This document shows, in pieces, positions 2,816-56,518 of a stretch of 60,736 nucleotides of DNA. Source of the DNA: Candidatus Levybacteria bacterium RBG_16_35_11 (GTDB lineage: Bacteria > Patescibacteriota > Microgenomatia > Levybacterales > UBA12049). The position numbers and the translations under genes are program-made. How positions within the stretch are numbered: the first letter of the stretch is position 1; each line of letters begins with the position of its first letter. The DNA lies in the NCBI GenBank assembly GCA_001781995.1, contig MFNH01000071.1, positions 1 to 60,736 of the forward strand. Direction: 5' to 3'. Below the pieces are notes generated by a model. The model was given only the letters and a program-made list of their open reading frames with translations, made no database searches and had not been told where the DNA came from.

Positions 2816-3361
2816 ATGGCAGCAGAAGTAGAAAATCGCTCTGCCCCACCTGAGCTTCCCCAAGAAGAACTCGCAGAAAAATCATATAAAACGATTAATA
2901 ATTTAAAAGATCGTCTTTCCAATATTCCTGAAGTTGCAGCCGCAACTCTAAGAACTTATTTTTCGAGAGGAACATACTCGCATCGAGACGATGAAAAGAG
3001 ACTGCCAATAAACTACGGAGTAGGTTTTAATATCGGACAAGATTATTCAATGTCATCTAGTGAATATGAATTTTCTCTCAGAAAAGGTATTGGATGGGAC
3101 CCCAATAAAGATGGGGTAACCTCAAAACTATCATTAATAAGATATATTTCAAAAAATGTTTGGTGGAGTTTAAACTTGTCTTGTTCGTTTGAAGAAACGA
3201 AAGGAGATAAGACAGTACGGCCGTATTACGGTTCAATACTTTTGGAAAAATGGAGCTCCGGAAATGTCGTAAAAAAGATGGAAGATTCAACAGAAGCTTA
3301 TGATGCAATTCCTAAAACATTTCCCGAGCTTTATCCATCACCTCCAAAACCTTTCTTTTAG
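2816..3361 (+). CDS. hypothetical protein (181 aa)
   Basis: Intact ORF with a near-consensus promoter. No motif recognised. Confidence 0.55.
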   Translation: MAAEVENRSAPPELPQEELAEKSYKTINNLKDRLSNIPEVAAATLRTYFSRGTYSHRDDEKRLPINYGVGFNIGQDYSMSSSEYEFSLRKGIGWDPNKDGVTSKLSLIRYISKNVWWSLNLSCSFEETKGDKTVRPYYGSILLEKWSSGNVVKKMEDSTEAYDAIPKTFPELYPSPPKPFF

Positions 3362-3367
3362 TTCTTT

Positions 3368-3409
3368 TATTCTTTTAAGGAAACATTCGCGGGTGTATTT
3401 AGAAAGAAA
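3368..3409 (-). repeat. second, shorter displaced copy of the cca 3' end
   Basis: About 33/42 nt identical to 4655-4696, including the exact 12-mer attcgcgggtgt. It translates to LSKYTRECFLKRIKEL, compared with LSKNTREYLLKRIKNL in cca. Confidence 0.6.
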
Positions 3410-3438: not shown

Positions 3439-4539
3439 TTAGCTTCTACCCCAGTAACCAGTCTTGATTCTTTCTAATATTTTGTCGGTGGCTGCGTTAA
3501 TTTTCATGAGTTCTTCTGGGTCTACGTCTCCTTTATCCGGGTGATAAATACTTGCATAATTTCTTCGTATGCCAAGAACTATTTTTTCAGCATCCTTAGG
3601 AGATCTGCTCGATAATAAATCAGGATCAATTCCCAGAGTTTTGCAGTAACCATATGGATCCTCTGCGCTCGCATTTAATATTCTGATAAAAGGGGATTGA
3701 AAAGGTCTTTCCTTAGTCTCTTTTTTTAATTTCATGTTCTCAAAAAGTGCATTCTGAAGCTCTTCATTAGTTTTTATTAGTCTGCTTTTAATTCTGGCTA
3801 ATATAGTTTCTAAAACTTGCTCACGTGTTTTATCTCCGGTTTCATCTCCTGCGACTACATCTGTTTGGGTAGCTTTCTTCTCATAAATAACTTCAGCATT
3901 GGCGTCGTCGTATCCTGTAATTACAATAATGTTTCCTTCGTATCTAATTTGCAAGAATGGAGTGTAATAAGTAGCATGTTCTTTAATGTCTTTAATGTCC
4001 CAGCTGCTATCAAACACAACAGCTCTAGCTTCATTATTAATAAAACCTAATCTGAGATCCGAAGGCTCACGATCATGCCCCAAAGTTACATGTTCTCCCG
4101 GCTCCATACTAACGATTCCTTCGCTGATATCGTGTCCAGTGACATGTATTGCTGTAGGACCGTATCCATAGAGAGGACAGTTTATACGCACCTTGTTTAA
4201 CCTAATTGGATTATAGGTTTCATCAGTTATATTAACATCAGTAAATTCTCCGTTCCATTTATCCTCAAAAAGCCGGCTAACCTGAACTGTTCGAGGCGGT
4301 ATCCCAAAATCATACAAAAAAACATAAACAGCATATTCACCCGAGGAACTAGAATCAAGCGTATCTAGATCAACTATAGCTTCTGGTCGCTCGGGAGATA
4401 TCGTCTCTCTATGCATTACTATTTGTGGTATCTTGGACTCTTCGGTTTCAGCATTGCCTGACGAATCAACAATAATTGCGGCCTTTCTCAATTCGCCAGA
4501 AAGTGGAACTTTGCTTACTTGGAATTGTTCATTCGCCAT
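3439..4539 (-). CDS. J-domain (DnaJ-like) protein with an unknown N-terminal domain
   Basis: C-terminal J domain containing HPD (RRNYASIYHPDKGD). The start is moved to ATG 4539 because TTGAAG-17-TATATT (4547-4575) lies inside the ORF-track extension. Confidence 0.75.
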   Translation of the reverse strand: MANEQFQVSKVPLSGELRKAAIIVDSSGNAETEESKIPQIVMHRETISPERPEAIVDLDTLDSSSSGEYAVYVFLYDFGIPPRTVQVSRLFEDKWNGEFTDVNITDETYNPIRLNKVRINCPLYGYGPTAIHVTGHDISEGIVSMEPGEHVTLGHDREPSDLRLGFINNEARAVVFDSSWDIKDIKEHATYYTPFLQIRYEGNIIVITGYDDANAEVIYEKKATQTDVVAGDETGDKTREQVLETILARIKSRLIKTNEELQNALFENMKLKKETKERPFQSPFIRILNASAEDPYGYCKTLGIDPDLLSSRSPKDAEKIVLGIRRNYASIYHPDKGDVDPEELMKINAATDKILERIKTGYWGRS

Positions 4540-4546
4540 GTCCGGA

Positions 4547-4575
4547 AATATAGCAAATTTAGTCAATAACTTCAA
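4547..4575 (-). promoter_or_regulatory. promoter TTGAAG-17nt-TATATT, 7 nt upstream of ATG 4539
   Basis: Plus-strand cttcaa at 4570-4575 and aatata at 4547-4552. Confidence 0.45.
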
Positions 4576-4639
4576 CTTTGATAACGAAGAAGATGGGAGT
4601 TAACTTCACACCGCGTAGGTTGAAGGCTAGAGTTGGAAG

Positions 4640-5998
4640 TTACTTAAGATTCTTAATTCTCTTAAGAAGATATTCGCGGGTGTTTTTGGAAAGATCTTCA
4701 TCAACTTCTTCAAAAAGTTTTTGGAGGATTTCTCCTACCTTTTTACTTGGTTTAATGCTTAGCACCTTCATAACATCATTTCCGTCAACTGCCATATCTT
4801 CAACCGAAAAGGGCTTTGGCTTAAGTTGTTCAACAACTCTTTTTTTAAATAATTTTAATCTCCAACTTTCAGCTGTTTGGGTTCCTCCTCCAAGACGGTC
4901 TCCGATTCTTAAATCTATAATGTCTTTTACATTTTCTACCCCAACACGTCTGATAAATCTTCTTATTGCAGAATCTGTGTCTTTTTCATTTACCGAAAAC
5001 ATATGCCATCTTATTAAATTAACAACTCGATCCCTTCCTTTTTTGGAAAATCTTAAGTTTTCGCAAATGTCTTTGGCAATTTTAGCTCCAACAAGTTCAT
5101 GGTTATGAAAAATTACTAATCCTTTTTCGTCTTTTTTCTCTACTTTTGGTTTTCCAACATCATGAATTAAAGAGGCAAACCTAACAATAGGATCGATTGA
5201 CGGGGTAAATTTTAGAGAGAGAAGACCATGGGTAAAAACATCTCCTTTGTGGTGTCTTCCCGGTCGTTCCATCGAAACACCTTTGCCAATCTGAAGTTCA
5301 GGCAGGATGTGAGTTAAAAGCCCACTTTGATCAAGTAGCAAAATTCCTTCATAAGCTTTATTACTGGCTAGAATTTTTAATAATTCGTCTCTAACACGCT
5401 CTTTTGAAATATGAATAATTAAAGGAGAATCTTTTCTTATTTCTTCCCAAGTTTTACCCTCAATTTCAAAATCCAAACAGACTGCAAAACGAATAGCCCT
5501 TATTAGTCTTAAAGCGTCCTCTTTAAATCTCTCGCTTGGGTTACCAACAGCTCTTATTATTTTCTTTTCAAGGTCATCTCTGCCATTGTACGGATCAACA
5601 AAGTGAGGTTCACCTTTGATTAAATCCATTGAGATTGCGTTAACTGTAAAATCTCTGCGCTGTAAATCTTCATCTATTGTTTTTCCCCAAGCTACTTTTT
5701 CAGGGTGTCTTCTATCTTTGTATTCAGACTCGCTTCTATAAGTGGTAACCTCGACAATTTGCTTTTGTTTCTTTATTTCAGCAAGTATTCCAACAGTCCC
5801 AAACTTATTATCATAGAAAGCATCAGGGAATAATTTTAATATTGCCTCTGGAGTAGCATTTGTGGCAAAATCCCAATCCTTTACCGCTGTTTTTAAAATG
5901 ATGTCTCTAACACATCCGCCGACAAAATAAACCTCAAATCCTCCCTTTTTTACTTTTTCAAAAATCTCCAAGATCTCTTTTGGAATTAAGTTGTTCAT
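4640..5998 (-). CDS. cca: CCA-adding tRNA nucleotidyltransferase with HD domain
   Basis: Motifs VGGCVRD, RRDFTVNA and HD (HDVGK); 452 aa. Confidence 0.9.
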   Translation of the reverse strand: MNNLIPKEILEIFEKVKKGGFEVYFVGGCVRDIILKTAVKDWDFATNATPEAILKLFPDAFYDNKFGTVGILAEIKKQKQIVEVTTYRSESEYKDRRHPEKVAWGKTIDEDLQRRDFTVNAISMDLIKGEPHFVDPYNGRDDLEKKIIRAVGNPSERFKEDALRLIRAIRFAVCLDFEIEGKTWEEIRKDSPLIIHISKERVRDELLKILASNKAYEGILLLDQSGLLTHILPELQIGKGVSMERPGRHHKGDVFTHGLLSLKFTPSIDPIVRFASLIHDVGKPKVEKKDEKGLVIFHNHELVGAKIAKDICENLRFSKKGRDRVVNLIRWHMFSVNEKDTDSAIRRFIRRVGVENVKDIIDLRIGDRLGGGTQTAESWRLKLFKKRVVEQLKPKPFSVEDMAVDGNDVMKVLSIKPSKKVGEILQKLFEEVDEDLSKNTREYLLKRIKNLK

Positions 5999-20677: not shown

Positions 20678-21538
20678 ATGTGGTTGCCCTTTAGTTTCCT
20701 TAATGCTTTCTTTGATTCCTTTACAAATGTTTTTGCAAAAAGGGGATTGCAAAAAATTGACAACCTTTCAGTTGTCTGGTCACATAGGTTTTTTGGCATT
20801 TTGATACTTATCCCATTGGCAATTGCAACGTCTTCTTTTAAACCGGTGTCCTTTAATTTCTGGCCTGCATTGATTGGAAGTTCGATCATTAACACAGTTA
20901 CCGCAATTCTTTATGCAAAGGCAATAAAAGATTCAGATCTTTCTCTTGTCTTACCAATCATTACATTAACCCCTATATTTTTATTATTTACATCTCCCTT
21001 AATACTTGGTGAATTTCCAAAAACAATTGGAGTTGTCGGAATTGTATTTACAGTATTGGGGGCATATGTTCTAAATTTCAGTCAGAGAAAGTATGGCTTT
21101 TTCAAGCCCTTAATTAGCATTGTCAAGGAAAGCGGGCCAAGGTTAATGTTAATTATTGCTTTTTTATGGAGTATCTCCGCAAACCTAGATAAGATCGCAA
21201 TTAAGAACTCCAATCCATTACTTTATGCAGTCTCTATTGTTTTTGTTATGCTTGTTCTACTAACTGCAATTTTAATTTTCTATAAGACCTCTTTTAAAAA
21301 TATTTTTAGAAATAGCCGTATTCTTGCGCCAATAGGAGTGTCAGCTGGACTATCCACTTTTTTTCAGTTTTTTGCATTATCTTTAACAATTGTCCCTAAC
21401 GTAATTTCTGTAAAAAGGACAAGTGCAATTTTTAGTGTTTTTTGGGGAAAGTTGTTTTTTAAGGAAGAAAAGATTAAGGAAAGATTAATTGGAGCAATTG
21501 TTATGGTTTTGGGGGTAGTTTTAATTGCAATAAGCTGA
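20678..21538 (+). CDS. EamA/DMT-superfamily transporter
   Basis: 10 predicted TM segments arranged as two EamA-like halves; 286 aa. Confidence 0.7.
   Translation: MWLPFSFLNAFFDSFTNVFAKRGLQKIDNLSVVWSHRFFGILILIPLAIATSSFKPVSFNFWPALIGSSIINTVTAILYAKAIKDSDLSLVLPIITLTPIFLLFTSPLILGEFPKTIGVVGIVFTVLGAYVLNFSQRKYGFFKPLISIVKESGPRLMLIIAFLWSISANLDKIAIKNSNPLLYAVSIVFVMLVLLTAILIFYKTSFKNIFRNSRILAPIGVSAGLSTFFQFFALSLTIVPNVISVKRTSAIFSVFWGKLFFKEEKIKERLIGAIVMVLGVVLIAIS
21484..21538 (+). repeat. direct repeat R1 (the functional 3' end of the EamA gene)
   Basis: Matches 22180-22232 at about 49 of 55 aligned positions by hand. Confidence 0.7.
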
Positions 21539-21583
21539 TTCTCTTGAAAACTACTCTTGAAACAACTTTGATATACTTAAAAA

Positions 21584-22141
21584 ATGAACAGCTTGCAAAA
21601 ATTTAAATACAAGAACTGTTTTTTCTTCTTAATTTCTTTTCTAATTGCAATTTTTCTTTTTAAAATACCACAAGTTCAATCATTTTTATTTAACTTAGGT
21701 AATTTTGGTTATTTTGGTGCCTTTATTGGAGGAATGCTCTTTGTGTCAACTTTTACGATAGCAATTGGTGCGCTGGTACTTATGATACTTGCAAATACTC
21801 TTTCGCCACTAGAGATAGGAATTATTGCGGGAATCGGAGCTGTAGTTGGAGATTTTACCATTTTCCGATTTGTAAAAAATAATCTTTCAGGGGAACTAGA
21901 AGAAATTTATAACAAAATTGACACAAATCACCACATTATAAAGATTCTCCATACTAAATATTTCAGTTGGACATTACCAGTAATAGGGGCAATTATTATT
22001 GCATCTCCGCTTCCCGATGAAATAGGAGTAAGCCTTATGGGGATATCTAAGATGAAAGTCTATCAGTTTCTAATAACATCATTTATATTAAATACAATTG
22101 GAATATTTCTCGTAATTTCGGCAGGATTAATAATTAAGTAA
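21584..22141 (+). CDS. hypothetical polytopic membrane protein (185 aa), bracketed by R1/R2
   Basis: About 5 TM segments. Its own -10 TATACT at 21572-21577 ends 6 nt before the ATG. Confidence 0.6.
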   Translation: MNSLQKFKYKNCFFFLISFLIAIFLFKIPQVQSFLFNLGNFGYFGAFIGGMLFVSTFTIAIGALVLMILANTLSPLEIGIIAGIGAVVGDFTIFRFVKNNLSGELEEIYNKIDTNHHIIKILHTKYFSWTLPVIGAIIIASPLPDEIGVSLMGISKMKVYQFLITSFILNTIGIFLVISAGLIIK

Positions 22142-22179
22142 ATGACTTCTAGACGGTGTGAGTAAAAGTGGTAGCACCT

Positions 22180-22232
22180 ATTAATTGGACAATAGTTATG
22201 GTTTAGGGGTAGTCTTAATTGCAATAAGCTAA
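22180..22232 (+). repeat. direct repeat R2 (decayed copy of the EamA 3' end, with an in-frame stop)
   Basis: attaattggacaatagttatggtttaggggtagtcttaattgcaataagctaa, compared with R1. It ends 17 nt before the hydrolase ATG. Confidence 0.7.
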
Positions 22233-22249
22233 GAAGAGACTCGTGATTT

Positions 22250-22990
22250 ATGAAGAGTAGTTTTTGTAATTTAGAAAGCCAAAAATTACATTATTTGGAG
22301 AAAGGTAAAGGGAAAACCATCGTTCTTTTACCATCTCTTTGGATAACCAGTAGACCCTTTGAGGAGATTGGAGAGAAACTTTCCAAAAAATACCATATAA
22401 TCATCCCAGATCTTTATAAAGGTAAATCAATTTTTACAAAAAGAGCAACAAATGTTTCAGATTATTTAAATGCTTTAGAAGAATTTTTAATAAAACTTAG
22501 AATTTCAAAATATTTTTTAATTGGGATTTCGGGAAGTGGTTTTCTAGTTACTAGTTTTATTGAACAAACTTTAAATAAACCAATTAAAGTTCTTCTGTTT
22601 AGCACATCATTTAATTCAGCCGCATTTCCCGAGAAAAGATTTTTTTTCATATTTAAGGGATATTTAAAAATGTTTGCGGTTAACTTTGCCACCTTAGAAA
22701 AAATCAAGGTGATCCTACCTGTTTTGCGCGATGCGTTTTCCTTTCTTGGCACCCATCCTAAGCAATTCATTAGCGAAGCTTTTATACCAATAGGTGGCTT
22801 AACTAATAAACCCTGCGTTTCAACAACCTTATTTATTTCCAAGAAAGATGAATTTTTCCCTTATAAAAAATTACTTGATTTAAACAAGTCGATAAAGGAT
22901 TTGAAAACAGTGACTTTAAACGAAAGACATATATGGTTTTTTCTCAAGAAAGATAAATTTGTTAAAGAAATAGCAGGGGTAGTTGGTTAA
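22250..22990 (+). CDS. alpha/beta-fold hydrolase
   Basis: Nucleophile elbow GISGSG and an N-terminal HYLEKGKGKTIVLLP typical of the fold. Confidence 0.7.
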   Translation: MKSSFCNLESQKLHYLEKGKGKTIVLLPSLWITSRPFEEIGEKLSKKYHIIIPDLYKGKSIFTKRATNVSDYLNALEEFLIKLRISKYFLIGISGSGFLVTSFIEQTLNKPIKVLLFSTSFNSAAFPEKRFFFIFKGYLKMFAVNFATLEKIKVILPVLRDAFSFLGTHPKQFISEAFIPIGGLTNKPCVSTTLFISKKDEFFPYKKLLDLNKSIKDLKTVTLNERHIWFFLKKDKFVKEIAGVVG

Positions 22991-27264: not shown

Positions 27265-28197
27265 ATGATAGAAATAAAATGCATCCTTTGTGGAGATAAA
27301 CAGAGAACTTCAATATTATTTAAAAAAAGTTTTTCCAGAAGAGATATAAATAAAACAGTTTTTTCCGCAAGGAGAAATCCCGATTCAGTCCATTATCAAA
27401 TTAACAAATGCGAAAGATGCGGAATGGTTTTTTCTTCTCCCGTGATTTCCTCAGGAAACATACTTAAGCTTTATAAAAATAGTAAATTTAATTATCAAGA
27501 TAAGGCTCATCTACTTTCAAAAACTTATCTTACCTATCTTAGAAAAAAGACAAAATATTCACAAAAATCAAGGATTTTGGACATAGGATGCGGAAACGGC
27601 TTTTTTCTCAAGGAAATTTTTGCAAAAGGAAACAAAAATATTTATGGGGTAGAACTAAGCAAAGATGCAGTATCAAAGGCAAGCAAAAATATAAAAGACA
27701 GAATAAAACTTACTCCACTTAAGAAAAATATTTATAGAAACGATTCTTTCGATTTAATTACCTGCTTTCATACCTTGGACCATGTTATCGATCCTAATAA
27801 TTTTATGAAAACTGTTTTTAATTATTTAAAACCAAAAGGACAAGTTTTTTTTATCGTACATGACGTGAAGGGATTATCTGTTAAAGTGTTTGGGGAAAAA
27901 TCTCCAATTTTCGACATTGAACACATTTTTCTTTTCAATGAAAATACCCTAAAAAAGCTTTTTTTGAAAAACGAATTTAGAAATATAAAGACTTTTAAAA
28001 TAAGGAATAGTTACAGCTTTTATGATTGGCTTATATCATCCCCTTTTCCGCTAAAAATAAAGAAACCAATTTCAGCTTTTTTAAAGACAACAGGCATAGG
28101 GAAAATGATGCTACATTTGAAAGCTGGTAACATAGGAATAATTGCTTCTAAGCGATATCAGCCAAAAAGGTTAGGAAAGAAGGTCGCGAAAAGGTAA
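27265..28197 (+). CDS. class I SAM-dependent methyltransferase with an N-terminal Cys4 ribbon
   Basis: CILCG...CERCG followed by ILDIGCGNG. Confidence 0.85.
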   Translation: MIEIKCILCGDKQRTSILFKKSFSRRDINKTVFSARRNPDSVHYQINKCERCGMVFSSPVISSGNILKLYKNSKFNYQDKAHLLSKTYLTYLRKKTKYSQKSRILDIGCGNGFFLKEIFAKGNKNIYGVELSKDAVSKASKNIKDRIKLTPLKKNIYRNDSFDLITCFHTLDHVIDPNNFMKTVFNYLKPKGQVFFIVHDVKGLSVKVFGEKSPIFDIEHIFLFNENTLKKLFLKNEFRNIKTFKIRNSYSFYDWLISSPFPLKIKKPISAFLKTTGIGKMMLHLKAGNIGIIASKRYQPKRLGKKVAKR

Positions 28198-29411
28198 AGA
28201 ATAATAGCAATAGCAATTCCCACAAAAGTCAAAATAACAACAGCATTCATTATTTTTGAGTTAATATAACCACCAAGAATTTTTTTATCATTTGAAAGAA
28301 CGTATAAGAAAATAAAGACCGGTAAAAGAAGTACCGCATTTATTGACTGAGTAATAATAAGGACAGGAATAAGGGGGACAAAGGGGAAAATTACCATTAA
28401 TGCTCCTAAGATTATGGAAAACGTAAAAATCCCGTAAAAATAAGGGGCCTCCCGAAATTTATAATTAAGGCCTGATTCAAGACCAAACGCTTCGGTAATA
28501 ACATAAGATGTTGAAAAAGGAACAAGGGCTGCTCCAAAAATTGACGCATTTAGAAAGCCAATTGCAAATAGCACAGAAGCAAATTGTCCGGCAAGGGGTT
28601 GAAGAGCCAAAGCTGCGTGTTTTGCATCAGTAATTGTAATTCCTTTTGTAAACAGGACTGCTGCAGAAGTAACTATTATAAAAAAAGCAATAAAATTTGT
28701 TAAGAAAGATCCGAAAAATACATCTCCTCTTTCAATTTTTAAATCCTCTTTGGAAAGCTTCTTATCTACAACATAACCTTGGATAAAGAATTGTCCCCAA
28801 GGTGTAATGGTTGTTCCAATTACTGCCATCATCATTAAAAAATAACCATGGCTAAATTGAAAAGTTGGAGTAACTAAGCTTTTTACCGCAAGCCCCCAAT
28901 CGGGATGAACAACAACTGCAGAAATAAGATAGGCAAAATAGAAAAAAGATAAGCCAAGAAAGACCCGCTCTAGCATTTTAAATCCCCCCCTTGTTACCAA
29001 AAAATATATAAAAACAGTTGCAACCGGGATTGAAATAAACCGAGGAACATTAAGAATCTCTAAAGATGCTCCTATTCCTGCAAATTCCGCAGCAATTACC
29101 CCTGTGTTACCAATAAAAAGGACTGCCATAACAAAAGTTGTCCATCCAATTCCAAACTTCTCTCGTATTAGTGAAGCAAGTCCCTTACCGGTTACAAGTC
29201 CCATTCTTGCTCCGATTTCTTGAGTTATTGCAAGCGAAAAAGTTGTTAAAAAAAGCACCCAAAGTAAAGAGTATCCAAAGTTTGCTCCGGCTACCGAATA
29301 TGTTGTAATTCCACCTGCGTCATTATCGGCAGTTCCCGCAATTATACCGGGACCGATTACGATTAGAAAAGGGAGTAATCGTTTAAATAATTTTCTTCTA
29401 AATTCCTTCAT
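28158..29411 (-). CDS. Nramp-related permease B (non-canonical metal site)
   Basis: GPGIIAGTADNDAGGITTYS in TM1 and GTTITPWGQFF in TM6; about 11 TM segments. Confidence 0.8.
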   Translation of the reverse strand: MKEFRRKLFKRLLPFLIVIGPGIIAGTADNDAGGITTYSVAGANFGYSLLWVLFLTTFSLAITQEIGARMGLVTGKGLASLIREKFGIGWTTFVMAVLFIGNTGVIAAEFAGIGASLEILNVPRFISIPVATVFIYFLVTRGGFKMLERVFLGLSFFYFAYLISAVVVHPDWGLAVKSLVTPTFQFSHGYFLMMMAVIGTTITPWGQFFIQGYVVDKKLSKEDLKIERGDVFFGSFLTNFIAFFIIVTSAAVLFTKGITITDAKHAALALQPLAGQFASVLFAIGFLNASIFGAALVPFSTSYVITEAFGLESGLNYKFREAPYFYGIFTFSIILGALMVIFPFVPLIPVLIITQSINAVLLLPVFIFLYVLSNDKKILGGYINSKIMNAVVILTFVGIAIAIILYLFATFFPNLFG

Positions 29412-30585
29412 ATTCAGCGCTTTCCTCTTCGATTCTTGCTAAGATTGAGTCAATTGTTATTATTCCGATAGGTTTTTTCTCTCTATCTACAACTGGAAGG
29501 ACTCTTAAATTGTAGTGGGTAAAAATTTCCAAGATCTTTTTAAAATCAACATATGGGTAAGTAAATTTTCTCTCAGAAACAATATCTTTAAGCTGAGCAA
29601 GAGGATCTTTATCTATTAGGTCTTTTATGTAAGTTACGCCAACAAATCTTTCAGCGCCGTTCGTAATTATAATTGCCTCAGGTTTTATTTCTTCCGTTGA
29701 AAGCTCACTCATTAGTTCTTTAACGGTTTTATTTCCATCTATTGAAAGAAAGTTTAAAATCATTAAACCTCCGGCAGTATCTTGGGGGAATTTAACTAAT
29801 CTTTCAACAGTTGCCGCTTTTTCTCCTCCTAATAATTTAAGAATTTCTGCTAATCTTAGAGGGTTAAGTTTATAGAAAATGTCTGCGATTTCAGAAACCC
29901 GCATTCTATTTACTACTTTTTCCAAAAAACTGGGAGGCAACTGTTCCAATATTGCTTCTTGAGTGTGCTCTTCTGCTTCTTCGATTGCCTCAGCTGCCTT
30001 TTCTGTGTCTAAACTTTCAACGATTCCAAGCCTTTCTTTTGTGCCTGCTTCTTCCAAAATATCTGCCAGTTCACTTGGATGGAAAGTATTTAATCGTGTT
30101 TGAGTTACTTTAATTTTTATATTCCCGGTTTCATAGTCAAAGGCTTCTATCATTTGCCAGGGAAGAATTTTTGACTCTGCTTTGATTAATTTTCCCAAAT
30201 GAAGCCTTCTTAAAAGTCCTGCAAGTCCAATGTCTATGCCAATTACTTTAATTTCGCCATTTCGCTCTAAAAGCACATCATTTACTCGAACTAATCTTTT
30301 TCCGTCGATATCGATAACTTGTTTATCCAATAAATCCTCATTTAAATAAAAGTCTTTAGTGTCATAGGGCAGGATAGGAAAATCGGTTGTTTTAAGAATA
30401 GCTCCTCTGGTGTGGAATTCGATTGAATTTGGAGGAACGGTTATTTTTCTCGATCCAATTTTTATTACAACCTTAGAAAGGGAAGGTTGGGGATGATTTT
30501 CAAATACGGAAGCATCAATAATTTTGCCGTATTTTTTTTTCTGAAAATAAACGTTTTTATTGACAATTTGACTTAAATAAATCAT
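29398..30585 (-). CDS. soluble PRC-barrel-like / MgtE N-terminal domain / CBS-pair protein
   Basis: The MgtE_N-like segment is LADILEEAGTKERLGIVESLDTEKAAEAIE. C-terminal CBS-like repeats follow, and there are no TM segments. Confidence 0.75.
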   Translation of the reverse strand: MIYLSQIVNKNVYFQKKKYGKIIDASVFENHPQPSLSKVVIKIGSRKITVPPNSIEFHTRGAILKTTDFPILPYDTKDFYLNEDLLDKQVIDIDGKRLVRVNDVLLERNGEIKVIGIDIGLAGLLRRLHLGKLIKAESKILPWQMIEAFDYETGNIKIKVTQTRLNTFHPSELADILEEAGTKERLGIVESLDTEKAAEAIEEAEEHTQEAILEQLPPSFLEKVVNRMRVSEIADIFYKLNPLRLAEILKLLGGEKAATVERLVKFPQDTAGGLMILNFLSIDGNKTVKELMSELSTEEIKPEAIIITNGAERFVGVTYIKDLIDKDPLAQLKDIVSERKFTYPYVDFKKILEIFTHYNLRVLPVVDREKKPIGIITIDSILARIEEESAEYEGI

Positions 30586-30648
30586 ATTTTAATTTTAGTT
30601 TTGCCTCAGTTGATCTGTCAAGGATTAATACGCTTTTTTTAGAACTAA

Positions 30649-31959
30649 TCAAAGGAGTAAAAACATTGAAACCGCGGCTGCTGCCATCGCAAAAAACGTA
30701 AGCCAGACAAGTGTTTTTGAAATTTTCCCGCTTTTGTATTCACCCATAATTTTTTCGTTAGAGGCAATTTTGGCAATTAAGAAAATTAACGGAACTGCCA
30801 CAACTCCGTTAATTACTGCTGTTACAACTAAAGCTTTCATTGGATCAATACCAACAAAATTAATAGCTAGTCCTATTAAAGTTGCAATTATAATTACACC
30901 ATAAAAGCCATGAGCCCGTTTTAATTTTAAGTTTAAACCCTCATTCCAGTTAACCGCCTCAGCTACGGCATAAGACGCAGATCCCGCAAGAACAGGAACA
31001 GCCAAAAGTCCTAAGCCAATTATTCCAAAGGAAAAAATGCATTTTGCTAAAAATCCCGAATTAGGAAAGGTTTGAACAAGCGGTTCAAGCGCTTTAGCAG
31101 CATCAGCCGCGGTATTAATATTTGTAATGCCACTTACATAAAGAGTGCCTGCGGTTGTAACGATAATTGCCCACATTGTAATTTCTGAAGCAGTCATTCC
31201 TATAAGGGTGTCTATCCGGATTAAACGGATGAAATTCCAGCTAATTCTTGGAGGACTACTAATAGTTGATAAGTGTTTGGCTTTTTCTTCTTCGACCTCT
31301 TCACTTGCTTGCCAGAAAAACATGTATGGAGAAATTGTTGTTCCTAAAACTCCTGTAATCATAAAAAAGAAGCCAAAAGAAAATTCAAAATGGGGAATTA
31401 AGGTAGATTTTAATATCTCTATCCACGGTTCATTAATAATAAAAACCGTAATTAGATATGAGACAAGTGCAAGAGAAAGCCACTTTAAAATCCTTGCATA
31501 AACTCTGTAGGAACTAAAGATTTCCAAAAGAAGAACAATAATCGTAAATAGTATGGTTAGAATAACAAATGGGATGGGAACAATTAGCTGTGCTGCTGCA
31601 GCAACAGCGCCAATATCAGCTCCGATATTAACTGTATTTGCTATAACAACAAGAATAACCGCAGATAATACTATTTTTTTGCTATAAAATTGTTTGCATA
31701 CTGCAACAATCCCTTTTCCCGTAACAACACCAATTCTTGCGCATGCTTCTTGGACTGCAGTTTGGAAGGGAAGCATAAAAAGTGACGTCCAAAGCAGGCC
31801 ATAGCCAAACTGTGCTCCCGTTTGTGAGTAGGTTGCGATCCCCGATGGGTCGTCATCTGCAGCCCCTGTTACAAGACCTGGTCCCAATATTCTTAAGAAA
31901 CGGCTAAACTTATGCCTTATTTTATTGGCTTCTTTTTCCACATTTTCAGTGTTCCACAA
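30649..31959 (-). CDS. Nramp-related permease A (non-canonical metal site)
   Basis: [20 protein letters not shown] in TM1 and [12 protein letters not shown] in TM6. The start is uncertain: TTG at 31959 or GTG at 31941. Confidence 0.8.
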
Positions 31960-54269: not shown

Positions 54270-56518
54270 AGAAATTTGTTTTTATTCCGTTATTTTTAAT
54301 AATAACGATAATTTTCTTTTACCCGACTTTTTTAAAAGGATTATTGCCAATTCCTTCAGATACAGTAGTTGGTTTATATCATCCATTTAGGGATTTTTTT
54401 GCTAATCAATTTCCTAATGGAATACCTTTTAAGAATTTCCTCTTAACAGATCCTGTTAGGCAGCAATATCCTTGGAAAGAATTGTCAATCTCCCTGCTTA
54501 AGATAAACGAGCTTCCCCTTTGGAATCCATTCAACCTTTCAGGGACACCACTTTTGGCAAATTTTCAATCTTCTCCCTTTTATATTTTAAACATAATGCT
54601 TTTTTTTATGCCGTTTAAATACGGCTGGTCACTTTTGGTAATCTCTCAGATTTTTCTCTCCTGCCTATTTCTATATCTTTATTTAAAAAATCTTAAATTA
54701 AGTATCGGTGCTTCCATCTTTGGCGCTCTTGCCTTTTCCTTTTCTGGGTTTTCAATAGCCTGGCTTGAATGGGGAACAATTCTCCAAACAGCGCTGTGGC
54801 TTCCCTTAATTCTTTATTCAATCGACAAAGTCTTTTTCTCTAAGAAAAAAACTTTTTATTTAATATTATTAATTCTTTCACTTTGCTTTTCTCTTTTTGC
54901 AGGTCATCCTCAGCTTTCTTTTTACGTTTTAATTTTTTTTGTAGCCTATTTTTTCTCCCGTTTTCTACAACAACGAAAGAAAGAGTTTATCTTAATATTT
55001 TTCTATACTGTTATTCCTTTTTTGGTAATAACTTCTATTCAGTGGTTGCCATCTTTGCAATTTAATTTTCTTTCGGCAAGATCCATTGACCAAAATTGGC
55101 AAATTGAAGGATGGTTTATTCCTTGGCAAAACTTAATTCAGTTTATAGCCCCGGATTTTTTTGGAAACCCCGCAACATTAAACTATTGGGGAATCTGGAA
55201 TTACGGAGAGCTTGTTAATTATTTGGGAATTCTCCCTTTTATCTTTGGAGTTTTTTGTCTTTTTTATAGGAAAGACAGAAAAACACTATTTTTTGGAACT
55301 GCTTTTTTCCTTTCACTTATTTTTTCCCTTCCTACAATATTTGCAAAGCTTCCGTATTTATTTAAGGTTCCTTTAATTTCCGGTTTTCAACCAACCCGCC
55401 TAAACTTTATTACCGATTTTTCTATGGCTGTATTGGCAGCAATGGGAATTGATTATTTTGCGAAGCAAAAGACGGATAGTCACTTTTATAAGAAAAAAAA
55501 GAATGTTTTTTATCCGGTTATTTTTACGGGTTTAATTTTAGTAGTGCTTTGGGTTTTTGTTCTAAAGGGAGATTTACTTTTAAAACAAATATCCTCTTCA
55601 GATTTGCTGGTATCAAAAAATAATCTTTATCTTCCCACACTAATATTCTTAGTAAGTATTCTTATCCTTTTTCTTTCGGTTTTTAAGAAAAAAAAGGAAA
55701 TTTTTTATAGCTTAATTATTCTGGTTTTAATTTTCGATCTCTTCCGTTTTGGCTGGAAATTTACTCCTTTTTCTTCGGCTAATTATCTTTTCCCAAATAC
55801 AAAGATAACAACCTTTCTGGAAAAAGCAGAAAAACCTTTTAGAATTATGTCTTCCGATTCAAGGATTTTACCGCCTAATTTTTCAAGCGTTTATAAAATA
55901 GAAAGCATAGAAGGCTATGATCCTCTTTATTTACTTAGATACGGAGAACTTATTGCCGCCATGGAGAGGGGGAAACCGGATATTTCCCCACCCTTTGGAT
56001 TTAACAGAATCATTACGCCTCATAATTATAAATCTCCATTAATTAATTTATTAGGAGTAAAGTATCTTCTTACCTTTGACGAAGTTTTCGACCAAGGCTT
56101 TAATAAAGTTTTGTCAGAAGGAAAAACGAATGTCTATGAAAATAAAAATGCTTTACCAAGAGCTTTTTTTATAGAGCAAACAATTAATGCTAAAAACAAA
56201 CAAGAGGCAATTAATCTTTTATTTAAAAATAGTGCAAGTTTAAATAAGTTAGCGATTGTAGAGGGAGCAAGTAATATAAATTTAAAGAATTGGACAGTAG
56301 GAGAGGCTAAGATATTGGAATATAAGGAAAATAAAATAATAATTGAAACCGAAAATAGAAAAGAAGGATTTTTGGTTTTAACGGATAGCTTTTATCCGAC
56401 ATGGCATGTTAAGATTAACGGGAATGAAGGTTCGATTTACAGGACGGATTATAATTTTAGGGGAGTAATTATTCCTGCAGGATCTCATAAAGTAGAATTT
56501 TATAATACCCTTTTCTAA
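54266..56518 (+). CDS. YfhO-family membrane glycosyltransferase, paralog 3
   Basis: PLWNPFNLSGTPLLANFQSSPFY and C-terminal FYPTWHVKINGNE. The ATGA overlap with the GT4 gene sets the start. Confidence 0.78.
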   Translation: MKKFVFIPLFLIITIIFFYPTFLKGLLPIPSDTVVGLYHPFRDFFANQFPNGIPFKNFLLTDPVRQQYPWKELSISLLKINELPLWNPFNLSGTPLLANFQSSPFYILNIMLFFMPFKYGWSLLVISQIFLSCLFLYLYLKNLKLSIGASIFGALAFSFSGFSIAWLEWGTILQTALWLPLILYSIDKVFFSKKKTFYLILLILSLCFSLFAGHPQLSFYVLIFFVAYFFSRFLQQRKKEFILIFFYTVIPFLVITSIQWLPSLQFNFLSARSIDQNWQIEGWFIPWQNLIQFIAPDFFGNPATLNYWGIWNYGELVNYLGILPFIFGVFCLFYRKDRKTLFFGTAFFLSLIFSLPTIFAKLPYLFKVPLISGFQPTRLNFITDFSMAVLAAMGIDYFAKQKTDSHFYKKKKNVFYPVIFTGLILVVLWVFVLKGDLLLKQISSSDLLVSKNNLYLPTLIFLVSILILFLSVFKKKKEIFYSLIILVLIFDLFRFGWKFTPFSSANYLFPNTKITTFLEKAEKPFRIMSSDSRILPPNFSSVYKIESIEGYDPLYLLRYGELIAAMERGKPDISPPFGFNRIITPHNYKSPLINLLGVKYLLTFDEVFDQGFNKVLSEGKTNVYENKNALPRAFFIEQTINAKNKQEAINLLFKNSASLNKLAIVEGASNINLKNWTVGEAKILEYKENKIIIETENRKEGFLVLTDSFYPTWHVKINGNEGSIYRTDYNFRGVIIPAGSHKVEFYNTLF

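Follow-up and report, generated by a model that had tools for sequence, protein, structure and literature searches.

Introduction

Cargo blocks bounded by repeated gene 3' ends are known from the cis-mobilisable elements (CIMEs) and integrative and conjugative elements (ICEs) found at the 3' end of fda in Streptococcus, and from arrays of tycheposons and tRNA-fragment islands. Some of these blocks carry no integrase and are mobilised in trans, and the arrays grow by accretion; the systems depend on identifiable tyrosine recombinases and on defined att cores. In E. coli, the prophage e14 (and likewise phage 21) supplies the 3' end of the intact icd gene and leaves an orphan C-terminal pseudogene, icdC, on the far side of the inserted DNA; most of the differences between the two copies of the end are synonymous (PMC13626634). 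Here, we analyse a comparable arrangement at an EamA transporter gene of Candidatus Levybacteria bacterium RBG_16_35_11, located in a stretch of 60,736 nt (GenBank assembly GCA_001781995.1, contig MFNH01000071.1, positions 1 to 60,736 of the forward strand; the whole stretch is called the window in the following). The last 55 nt of the EamA gene recur as a decayed copy beyond a single downstream gene, and by a modest preference we read this copy as a recombination scar, i.e. the orphan 3' end of an EamA allele of a sister lineage.

Two further types of process generate related layouts. In C-terminal displacement arrays, such as those of Rhs, contact-dependent inhibition (CDI) and type VI secretion system (T6SS) effector-immunity loci, serial insertions push older 3' ends downstream as orphans, and homology-facilitated illegitimate recombination (HFIR) has been proposed as the mechanism of this displacement in T6SS and Rhs loci (PMC5361080). 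Inserts of roughly 1 kb are reported for HFIR, and in E. coli single crossovers of circularised DNA were the main source of flanking duplications of homologous segments (PMC3240628). Patescibacteria possess genes for homologous recombination and competence, with most detected transfers taking place within the group (PMC12455944), and Saccharibacteria are naturally competent (PMC10633639).

Results

The EamA 3' end recurs beyond a single downstream gene

The final 55 nt of the EamA gene (R1, 21484-21538) are repeated on the same (+) strand at 22180-22232 (R2). As described in the initial annotation, 49 of the 55 aligned columns match and there are two 1-nt gaps; the number of substitutions is four (48 of 53 identical plus the stop codon, TGA versus TAA). 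The local alignment scores 77, shuffled sequences averaging 22.5 and not exceeding 34, and R2 is matched to R1 by blastn at E = 2e-8 in a 630-kb database. The longest perfect block spans 16 nt (TTAATTGCAATAAGCT). The homology begins abruptly at 22180 and ends with the stop codon, which is TGA in R1 and TAA in R2, and is confined to 53-55 nt, the 38 nt upstream of R2 and the 185-aa open reading frame (ORF) between the repeats being unrelated to EamA. R1 encodes the native last helix of the transporter, which is conserved across homologs. R2 runs into a TAG after the first 1-nt deletion, again in agreement with the decay noted initially; with the frameshifts repaired, its translation matches the 17 aa of R1 in one of the two gap placements that align equally well. 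R2 is an orphan, frameshifted EamA 3' end, and taken by itself no more than a short pseudogene remnant for which no function is evident. The locus comprises the following features.

20678-21538, + strand: intact EamA/DMT transporter gene, 286 aa (Pfam EamA, E = 1.1e-26)
21484-21538, + strand: R1, the upstream repeat copy, formed by the native last 17 codons and TGA of the EamA gene; C-terminus conserved in homologs
21539-21583, + strand: spacer of 45 nt with the extended -10 promoter of the 185-aa gene, TGaTATACT at 21569-21577
21584-22141, + strand: gene of a 185-aa polytopic membrane protein, DedA/VTT (TVP38/YdjX)-like, with a weak Pfam VTT_dom match
22142-22179, + strand: filler of 38 nt from the stop codon of the 185-aa gene to R2, holding the non-homologous junction
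22180-22232, + strand: R2, the orphan decayed copy of the EamA 3' end, identical in a second assembly (L001, see below)
22250-22990, + strand: alpha/beta hydrolase gene, a rare gene, starting 17 nt after R2

Between R1 and R2 there is one plausible gene only, that of the 185-aa protein, and the end of R2 at 22232 is separated by 17 nt from the hydrolase ATG at 22250, both as reported earlier.

The arrangement is recovered in a second sample. In a contig of 2,147 nt (ENA ERZ4902961; L001), R1, R2 and the junctions are identical to those of the window, and since this assembly is independent, misassembly is unlikely. We accordingly give very little credence to a chimera of strains, and equally little to the pair being the template and variable repeats of a diversity-generating retroelement (DGR), a structured RNA or a regulatory element. 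The contig does belong to a metagenome-assembled genome with co-existing strains, and two of the mismatches put an A in R2, as could be expected under such explanations. However, the indels and a T/C mismatch are unlike DGR variation, and no match to a reverse transcriptase, nor to an integrase, transposase or Cas1, was returned by Pfam searches of the ORFs of at least 90 aa in the 60.7-kb window; the absence of a recombinase at the repeat loci, remarked upon in the initial annotation, holds to this extent. Furthermore, R2 matches no Rfam family and contains neither a promoter nor a terminator pattern, and nothing significant folds at 22130-22250 (z-score -0.3) or as a stable structure in the 38-nt filler.

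Two classes of mobile element were likewise rejected. A target-site duplication of a transposon or insertion sequence would measure 2-15 bp, as compared to 55 nt here, and terminal inverted repeats at 21539 and 22179 are absent, as is a transposase match. For an integron gene cassette, the 22130-22250 segment offers no significant fold as an attC hairpin, and there is no integrase match. We also considered a motif shared by the junctions: CTANNCGGTGTGA occurs only twice in the window, at 22149-22161 (+) in the filler before R2 and at 4606-4618 (-) just past the stop codon of cca, in both cases on the strand of the host gene, with 0.2 occurrences expected by chance. A gapped alignment of the spacers nevertheless scores 17, unrelated matches within the window reaching 23, and other loci show no recurrence of the motif; the pairing is probably due to chance.

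Gene ends are repeated likewise at cca and holB

The repeat is not an isolated case. When the 3' tails of about 55 window genes were compared to the 4 kb downstream of each (control maximum 36), EamA (score 77) and cca (score 69) emerged as the sole genes with a recurring tail, in support of the parallel to cca drawn previously, and the cca end recurs twice.

4640-4723, - strand: copy A, the functional 3' end of the gene of the CCA-adding enzyme, cca (4640-5998)
3357-3407, - strand: copy B, an orphan 78% identical to A, beyond a single ORFan gene of 378 aa (3439-4575)
2077-2159, - strand: copy C, an orphan 79% identical to A over 72 nt, in which frame and stop codon are kept

Copy C sits after two further ORFan genes (2816-3361, +, and 2317-2718, -). 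We note that the C-terminus of the 378-aa ORFan protein is J-domain-like as judged by eye, having an HPD motif, with no Pfam match.

Applied to 554 genes in other loci, the tail scan identified one further case, the holB gene (DNA polymerase III delta') of a Levyibacteriota metagenome-assembled genome (JBBSGT010000038.1; L004). The holB tail is present at 260-315 and 1642-1696 with a 41-nt perfect core, flanking a single MFS-like transporter gene. The repeat stops 18 nt short of the holB stop codon, and the orphan copy would continue into a different C-terminus overlapping a convergent EamA gene; its differences display no silent bias. No motif common to the EamA, cca and holB repeats is apparent by eye, no motif search having been run.

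Differences between the copies are mostly silent

Three of the four substitutions between R1 and R2 are silent (ATT to ATA, GTT to GTC and TGA to TAA), and the fourth is either silent (TTG to TTA) or nonsense (TTG to TAG), by the choice between equal gap placements. Silent changes hence amount to 3-4 of 4, with a random expectation of 0.247 per change (p = 0.004-0.05 by gap placement). The codon-position test does not reach significance when EamA is taken by itself. Relative to the live end, the two orphan cca copies show 3/1/7 and 2/3/10 differences at first, second and third codon positions, and 11 of the 20 changed codons are synonymous, with conservative replacements in the others. Pooling all comparisons gives 5/5/20, i.e. 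20 of 30 differences at third positions (P = 2e-4), the strong signal coming from the cca copies. From this pattern, the copies look like working gene ends that evolved in separate lineages before they were brought next to each other, and because the differences are mostly silent, alleles of separate lineages are indicated rather than an in-place target duplication.

The same data bear on a duplication in situ, which we regard as rather improbable. Here, the 185-aa gene would have been copied within the genome into the end of EamA, by template switching or at a staggered break with a 55-nt target duplication, or a larger duplication would have been followed by trimming of the second EamA to 55 nt, with R2 decaying in place. 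Such an origin would account for a gene widely conserved in Levybacteria as cargo and for the two frameshifts of R2, as neutral decay predicts, and it is compatible with the perfect core and absence of silent bias at holB as well as with the codon-position result for EamA alone. It is, however, at odds with the silent character of 3-4 of the 4 EamA substitutions and with the clear coding constraint on the cca copies, and three tandem cca paralogs each trimmed to 50-80 nt would be unparsimonious. That the EamA homology stops at 53-55 nt also counts against it, and rejects in particular a tandem duplication of the whole EamA gene, of which R2 could have been a remnant according to the initial annotation.

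The genes at the locus and their relatives

The EamA protein of the window shows 100% identity to the one recorded for Candidatus Levybacteria bacterium RBG_16_35_11. On the + strand, the gene order is IMP-cyclohydrolase-like, NUDIX, EamA, 185-aa membrane protein and alpha/beta hydrolase; beyond the hydrolase, DUF5989 and then carbamoyltransferase genes follow on the - strand. EamA, the 185-aa gene and the hydrolase share one strand, with no terminator-like site predicted between them. Their GC content and GC content at third codon positions (GC3) are unremarkable, and no compositional foreignness was detected in any of the three.

The 185-aa gene has its own promoter, as proposed earlier: the -10 box TATACT (21572-21577), with TGn before it, ends 6 nt ahead of the ATG at 21584, and TGnTATACT likewise precedes the start codon by 6-7 nt in many of the roughly 70 listed homolog loci of the family (L007-L092). 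Because the box is only 6 nt (6-7 nt in homologs) from the start codon, the mRNA is probably leaderless and the gene a self-contained unit. The protein matches Pfam VTT_dom at E = 3e-5, below the curated cut-off, and some homologs have been labelled YdjX/TVP38 by JGI; an AlphaFold2 (AF2) model reached a pLDDT of only 66, a confidence too low for a fold search. Among its 1703 homologs, the best 120 are nearly all of about 186 aa and 62-82% identical, those with names being mostly Levybacteria. It is better conserved than EamA, for which 430 homologs were retrieved and the best non-self match is 67% identical, so that the 185-aa gene is not the obvious cargo that it had been taken for. The rare gene is the hydrolase, with 7 homologs only, the best of them 50% identical and all in unrelated contexts. 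At the C-terminus, the 185-aa protein reads ...IIK* (22136-22141), and nearly all homologs end in ...KP*. The last Pro codon was apparently lost where the gene meets the filler, and its absence from the window copy places a junction close to 22138. For the 38-nt filler itself, no source was found in the window or in 97 loci.

The hydrolase also shows the only differences between the window and L001, namely ten single-nucleotide polymorphisms (SNPs) within 142 nt (22423-22564), 190 nt downstream of R2. Eight of the ten fall on third codon positions, and all are A/T in the window and G/C in L001. The tract is about 7% divergent, similar to R1 and R2, and has the appearance of a short segment recombined in from a lineage diverged to about that degree.

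Apart from L001, no close relative was found. A scan of genome contigs with EamA gave only 43%-identity or fragmentary matches, and exact look-ups of EamA and cca returned no match. Among 80 other metagenome loci with 185-aa homologs, none has EamA, NUDIX or hydrolase genes nearby, and the neighbours vary from locus to locus. Nor is the gene flanked by ends of other genes in these 80 loci, an arrangement that the initial annotation had proposed to look for, and the idea of a mobile cassette set between gene ends elsewhere was rejected; flanking repeats at these loci proved to be promoter/leader motifs, a recurrent intergenic motif, tRNAs and hairpins.

As a separate observation, Levybacteria contigs contain near-identical intergenic modules before successive genes, one of them a promoter/leader module (TTCTGCTATAATTGCCCCGATTTGATT) and another with the motif CAGCTTCGGATTAGCCTCAAAAT. 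Examples are located at 1057-1089 and 1682-1712 in L052, 3352-3381 and 3944-3973 in L057, 3942-3967 and 4567-4592 in L089, 5931-5978 and 6622-6669 in L007, and 2656-2694, 3632-3670 and 4717-4743 in L009. These modules could mediate gene shuffling.

Possible integration by a recombinase encoded elsewhere

The shape of the locus raises the question of site-specific integration, which we judge to be unlikely, if somewhat less so than the duplication in situ. The R1-R2 interval would then be a cargo-only, CIME-like mini integrative element served by a tyrosine or serine recombinase encoded elsewhere, the att site would overlap the EamA 3' end with the element-borne R1 displacing the original end, now R2, and the cca array would represent tandem accretion. 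The geometry is identical to that of icd-e14-icdC (PMC13626634), and the order of the cca remnants fits accretion. Remnant lengths are alike in the four events (51-83 nt), 3'-end remnants are seen and 5'-end remnants are not, and gene ends replaced by an element-borne copy also differ mostly silently. Yet the window provides no recombinase match, the inserts carry only one or two genes, and the three targets EamA, cca and holB are without a visible common core. The 185-aa gene is moreover widespread, unflanked by gene ends in the 80 other loci and not found in viral contigs. None of the cargo proteins was matched significantly in searches of PHROGs and PADLOC (only two matches, at E = 0.0085), and a phage or defence origin of the cargo was rejected on these grounds.

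Other features of the window

Two further regions span 28158-31959 and 36758-60515. They include an MgtE-N/CBS/PRC protein with an Nramp paralog on either side, and a 24-kb cluster in which GT2 glycosyltransferases are numerous and accompanied by at least four membrane proteins of the YfhO-like or PMT_2 type. The glycosyltransferase cluster has internal repeats, such as 55485-55539 and 55680-55734.

Discussion

Based on the analysis of the repeat and its counterparts at cca and holB, we propose that R2 was left by additive recombination, a reading to which we give slightly better than even chances. DNA from a close sister lineage, with other genes downstream of EamA, would have been added to the chromosome rather than replacing the resident segment. 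Two known routes would produce just such a geometry. In the first, a single (Campbell-type) crossover would join the chromosome and a circularised fragment with about 55 bp of the EamA end and the 185-aa gene. In the second, one-sided HFIR, one end would pair in a shared gene, i.e. EamA or alternatively the hydrolase/carbamoyltransferase side, and the other end would be joined non-homologously at 22179/22180. Either way, the intact EamA gene would retain a functional end in R1, and the unselected R2 would be free to acquire its two frameshifts. The newcomer may be the 185-aa gene, or else R2 together with the hydrolase, since the former gene is widespread in Levybacteria and the latter rare.

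Several features agree with such an event. Of the two junctions, one lies within the homology shared from 22180 up to the stop codon, and the second is a sharp, non-homologous join. The limits of the R1/R2 homology fit sister genomes, in which different downstream genes would end the homology at the stop codon. The mostly silent differences between the copies agree as well, as do the lack of integrase, transposase, reverse transcriptase and Cas1 matches in Pfam searches of the window ORFs of at least 90 aa, and the recombination and competence genes of Patescibacteria, which exchange genes mainly within the group (PMC12455944, PMC10633639). The inserts measure 0.64-1.3 kb, consistent with the approximately 1-kb inserts of HFIR. 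A donor within the lineage would also leave GC and GC3 of the three genes unremarkable, as they are. Judging from the SNP tract in L001, a diverged sister lineage that recombines at the hydrolase locus does exist. We infer from internal evidence who the donor was, in which direction DNA was transferred and which enzymology was involved (RecA, natural transformation), because no empty site was found; the competence and RecA machinery is not encoded in the window.

A number of points weigh against the scar. The silent-site argument at EamA comprises four substitutions only, depends on gap placement and is weak. At 16 nt, the longest identity between R1 and R2 is short for a RecA-mediated crossover, and canonical HFIR usually deletes recipient DNA instead of duplicating it (PMC3240628). 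The comparison of EamA-hydrolase neighbourhoods suggested in the initial annotation uncovered neither an empty site nor a donor arrangement (EamA followed by the 185-aa gene) among the homolog contexts; the homologs of EamA (62-67% identity), of the 185-aa protein and of the hydrolase all reside in unrelated contexts. Finally, all four remnants (EamA, cca twice and holB) fall into the range of 51-83 nt, and a mirror scan of 495 genes for 5' ends repeated upstream, sensitive only to remnants of roughly 30-130 nt, detected no orphan fragment. Albeit on small numbers, the similar lengths and the 3'-only pattern hint at a process of greater specificity.

Such a process could take the form of a dedicated route in Levybacteria, or perhaps throughout the candidate phyla radiation (CPR), by which single self-promoted genes are inserted at gene 3' ends with duplication of about 50-80 nt, the enzyme being unrecognised or encoded elsewhere. 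The four events would fit. The initial annotation had put forward a recurrent and possibly undescribed route of cassette acquisition; the recurrence is borne out by EamA, the two cca remnants and holB, but a new route finds little favour with us, as the mostly silent differences between the copies fit known recombination, and we consider it improbable. The feature is real and recurrent, and it most likely represents a new CPR example of known recombination processes, not a new mechanism.

If R2 is indeed a scar of this kind, orphan gene ends would be the natural footprints that sister CPR lineages leave when they recombine additively, providing sequence-level evidence for how small, probably competent genomes reorder their genes and gain single genes without mobile-element machinery. 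This would help to explain the very poor synteny around conserved genes, and the scars could be counted across metagenome-assembled genomes as a measure of additive recombination.

Compared to known systems, the EamA locus reproduces the organisation of icd and e14 in that R1 completes the gene and R2 is left as an orphan at the far end, with mostly synonymous differences between the two ends in both cases (PMC13626634). However, the prophage e14 measures 15 kb and encodes its own integrase, whereas the insert at EamA is 0.64 kb long, carries one housekeeping-type gene and has no recombinase match within 60 kb. The cca array resembles the C-terminal displacement arrays in the serial displacement of older 3' ends as downstream orphans. 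Those arrays encode polymorphic toxins, whose 3' ends vary, along with immunity genes, in contrast to the alleles of the ordinary genes EamA, cca and holB and the non-toxin cargo found here; membership in that class was rejected, as EamA and cca are the host genes, the remnants are homologous alleles and the layout alone is common. With respect to HFIR and single crossovers, canonical HFIR gives deletions and experimental duplications are longer, 109-950 bp as compared to 51-83 nt, yet the locus shares with these processes the pairing of a homologous with a non-homologous junction, an insert size of about 1 kb and, for the single crossover, the duplication of the homologous segment on both sides (PMC3240628).

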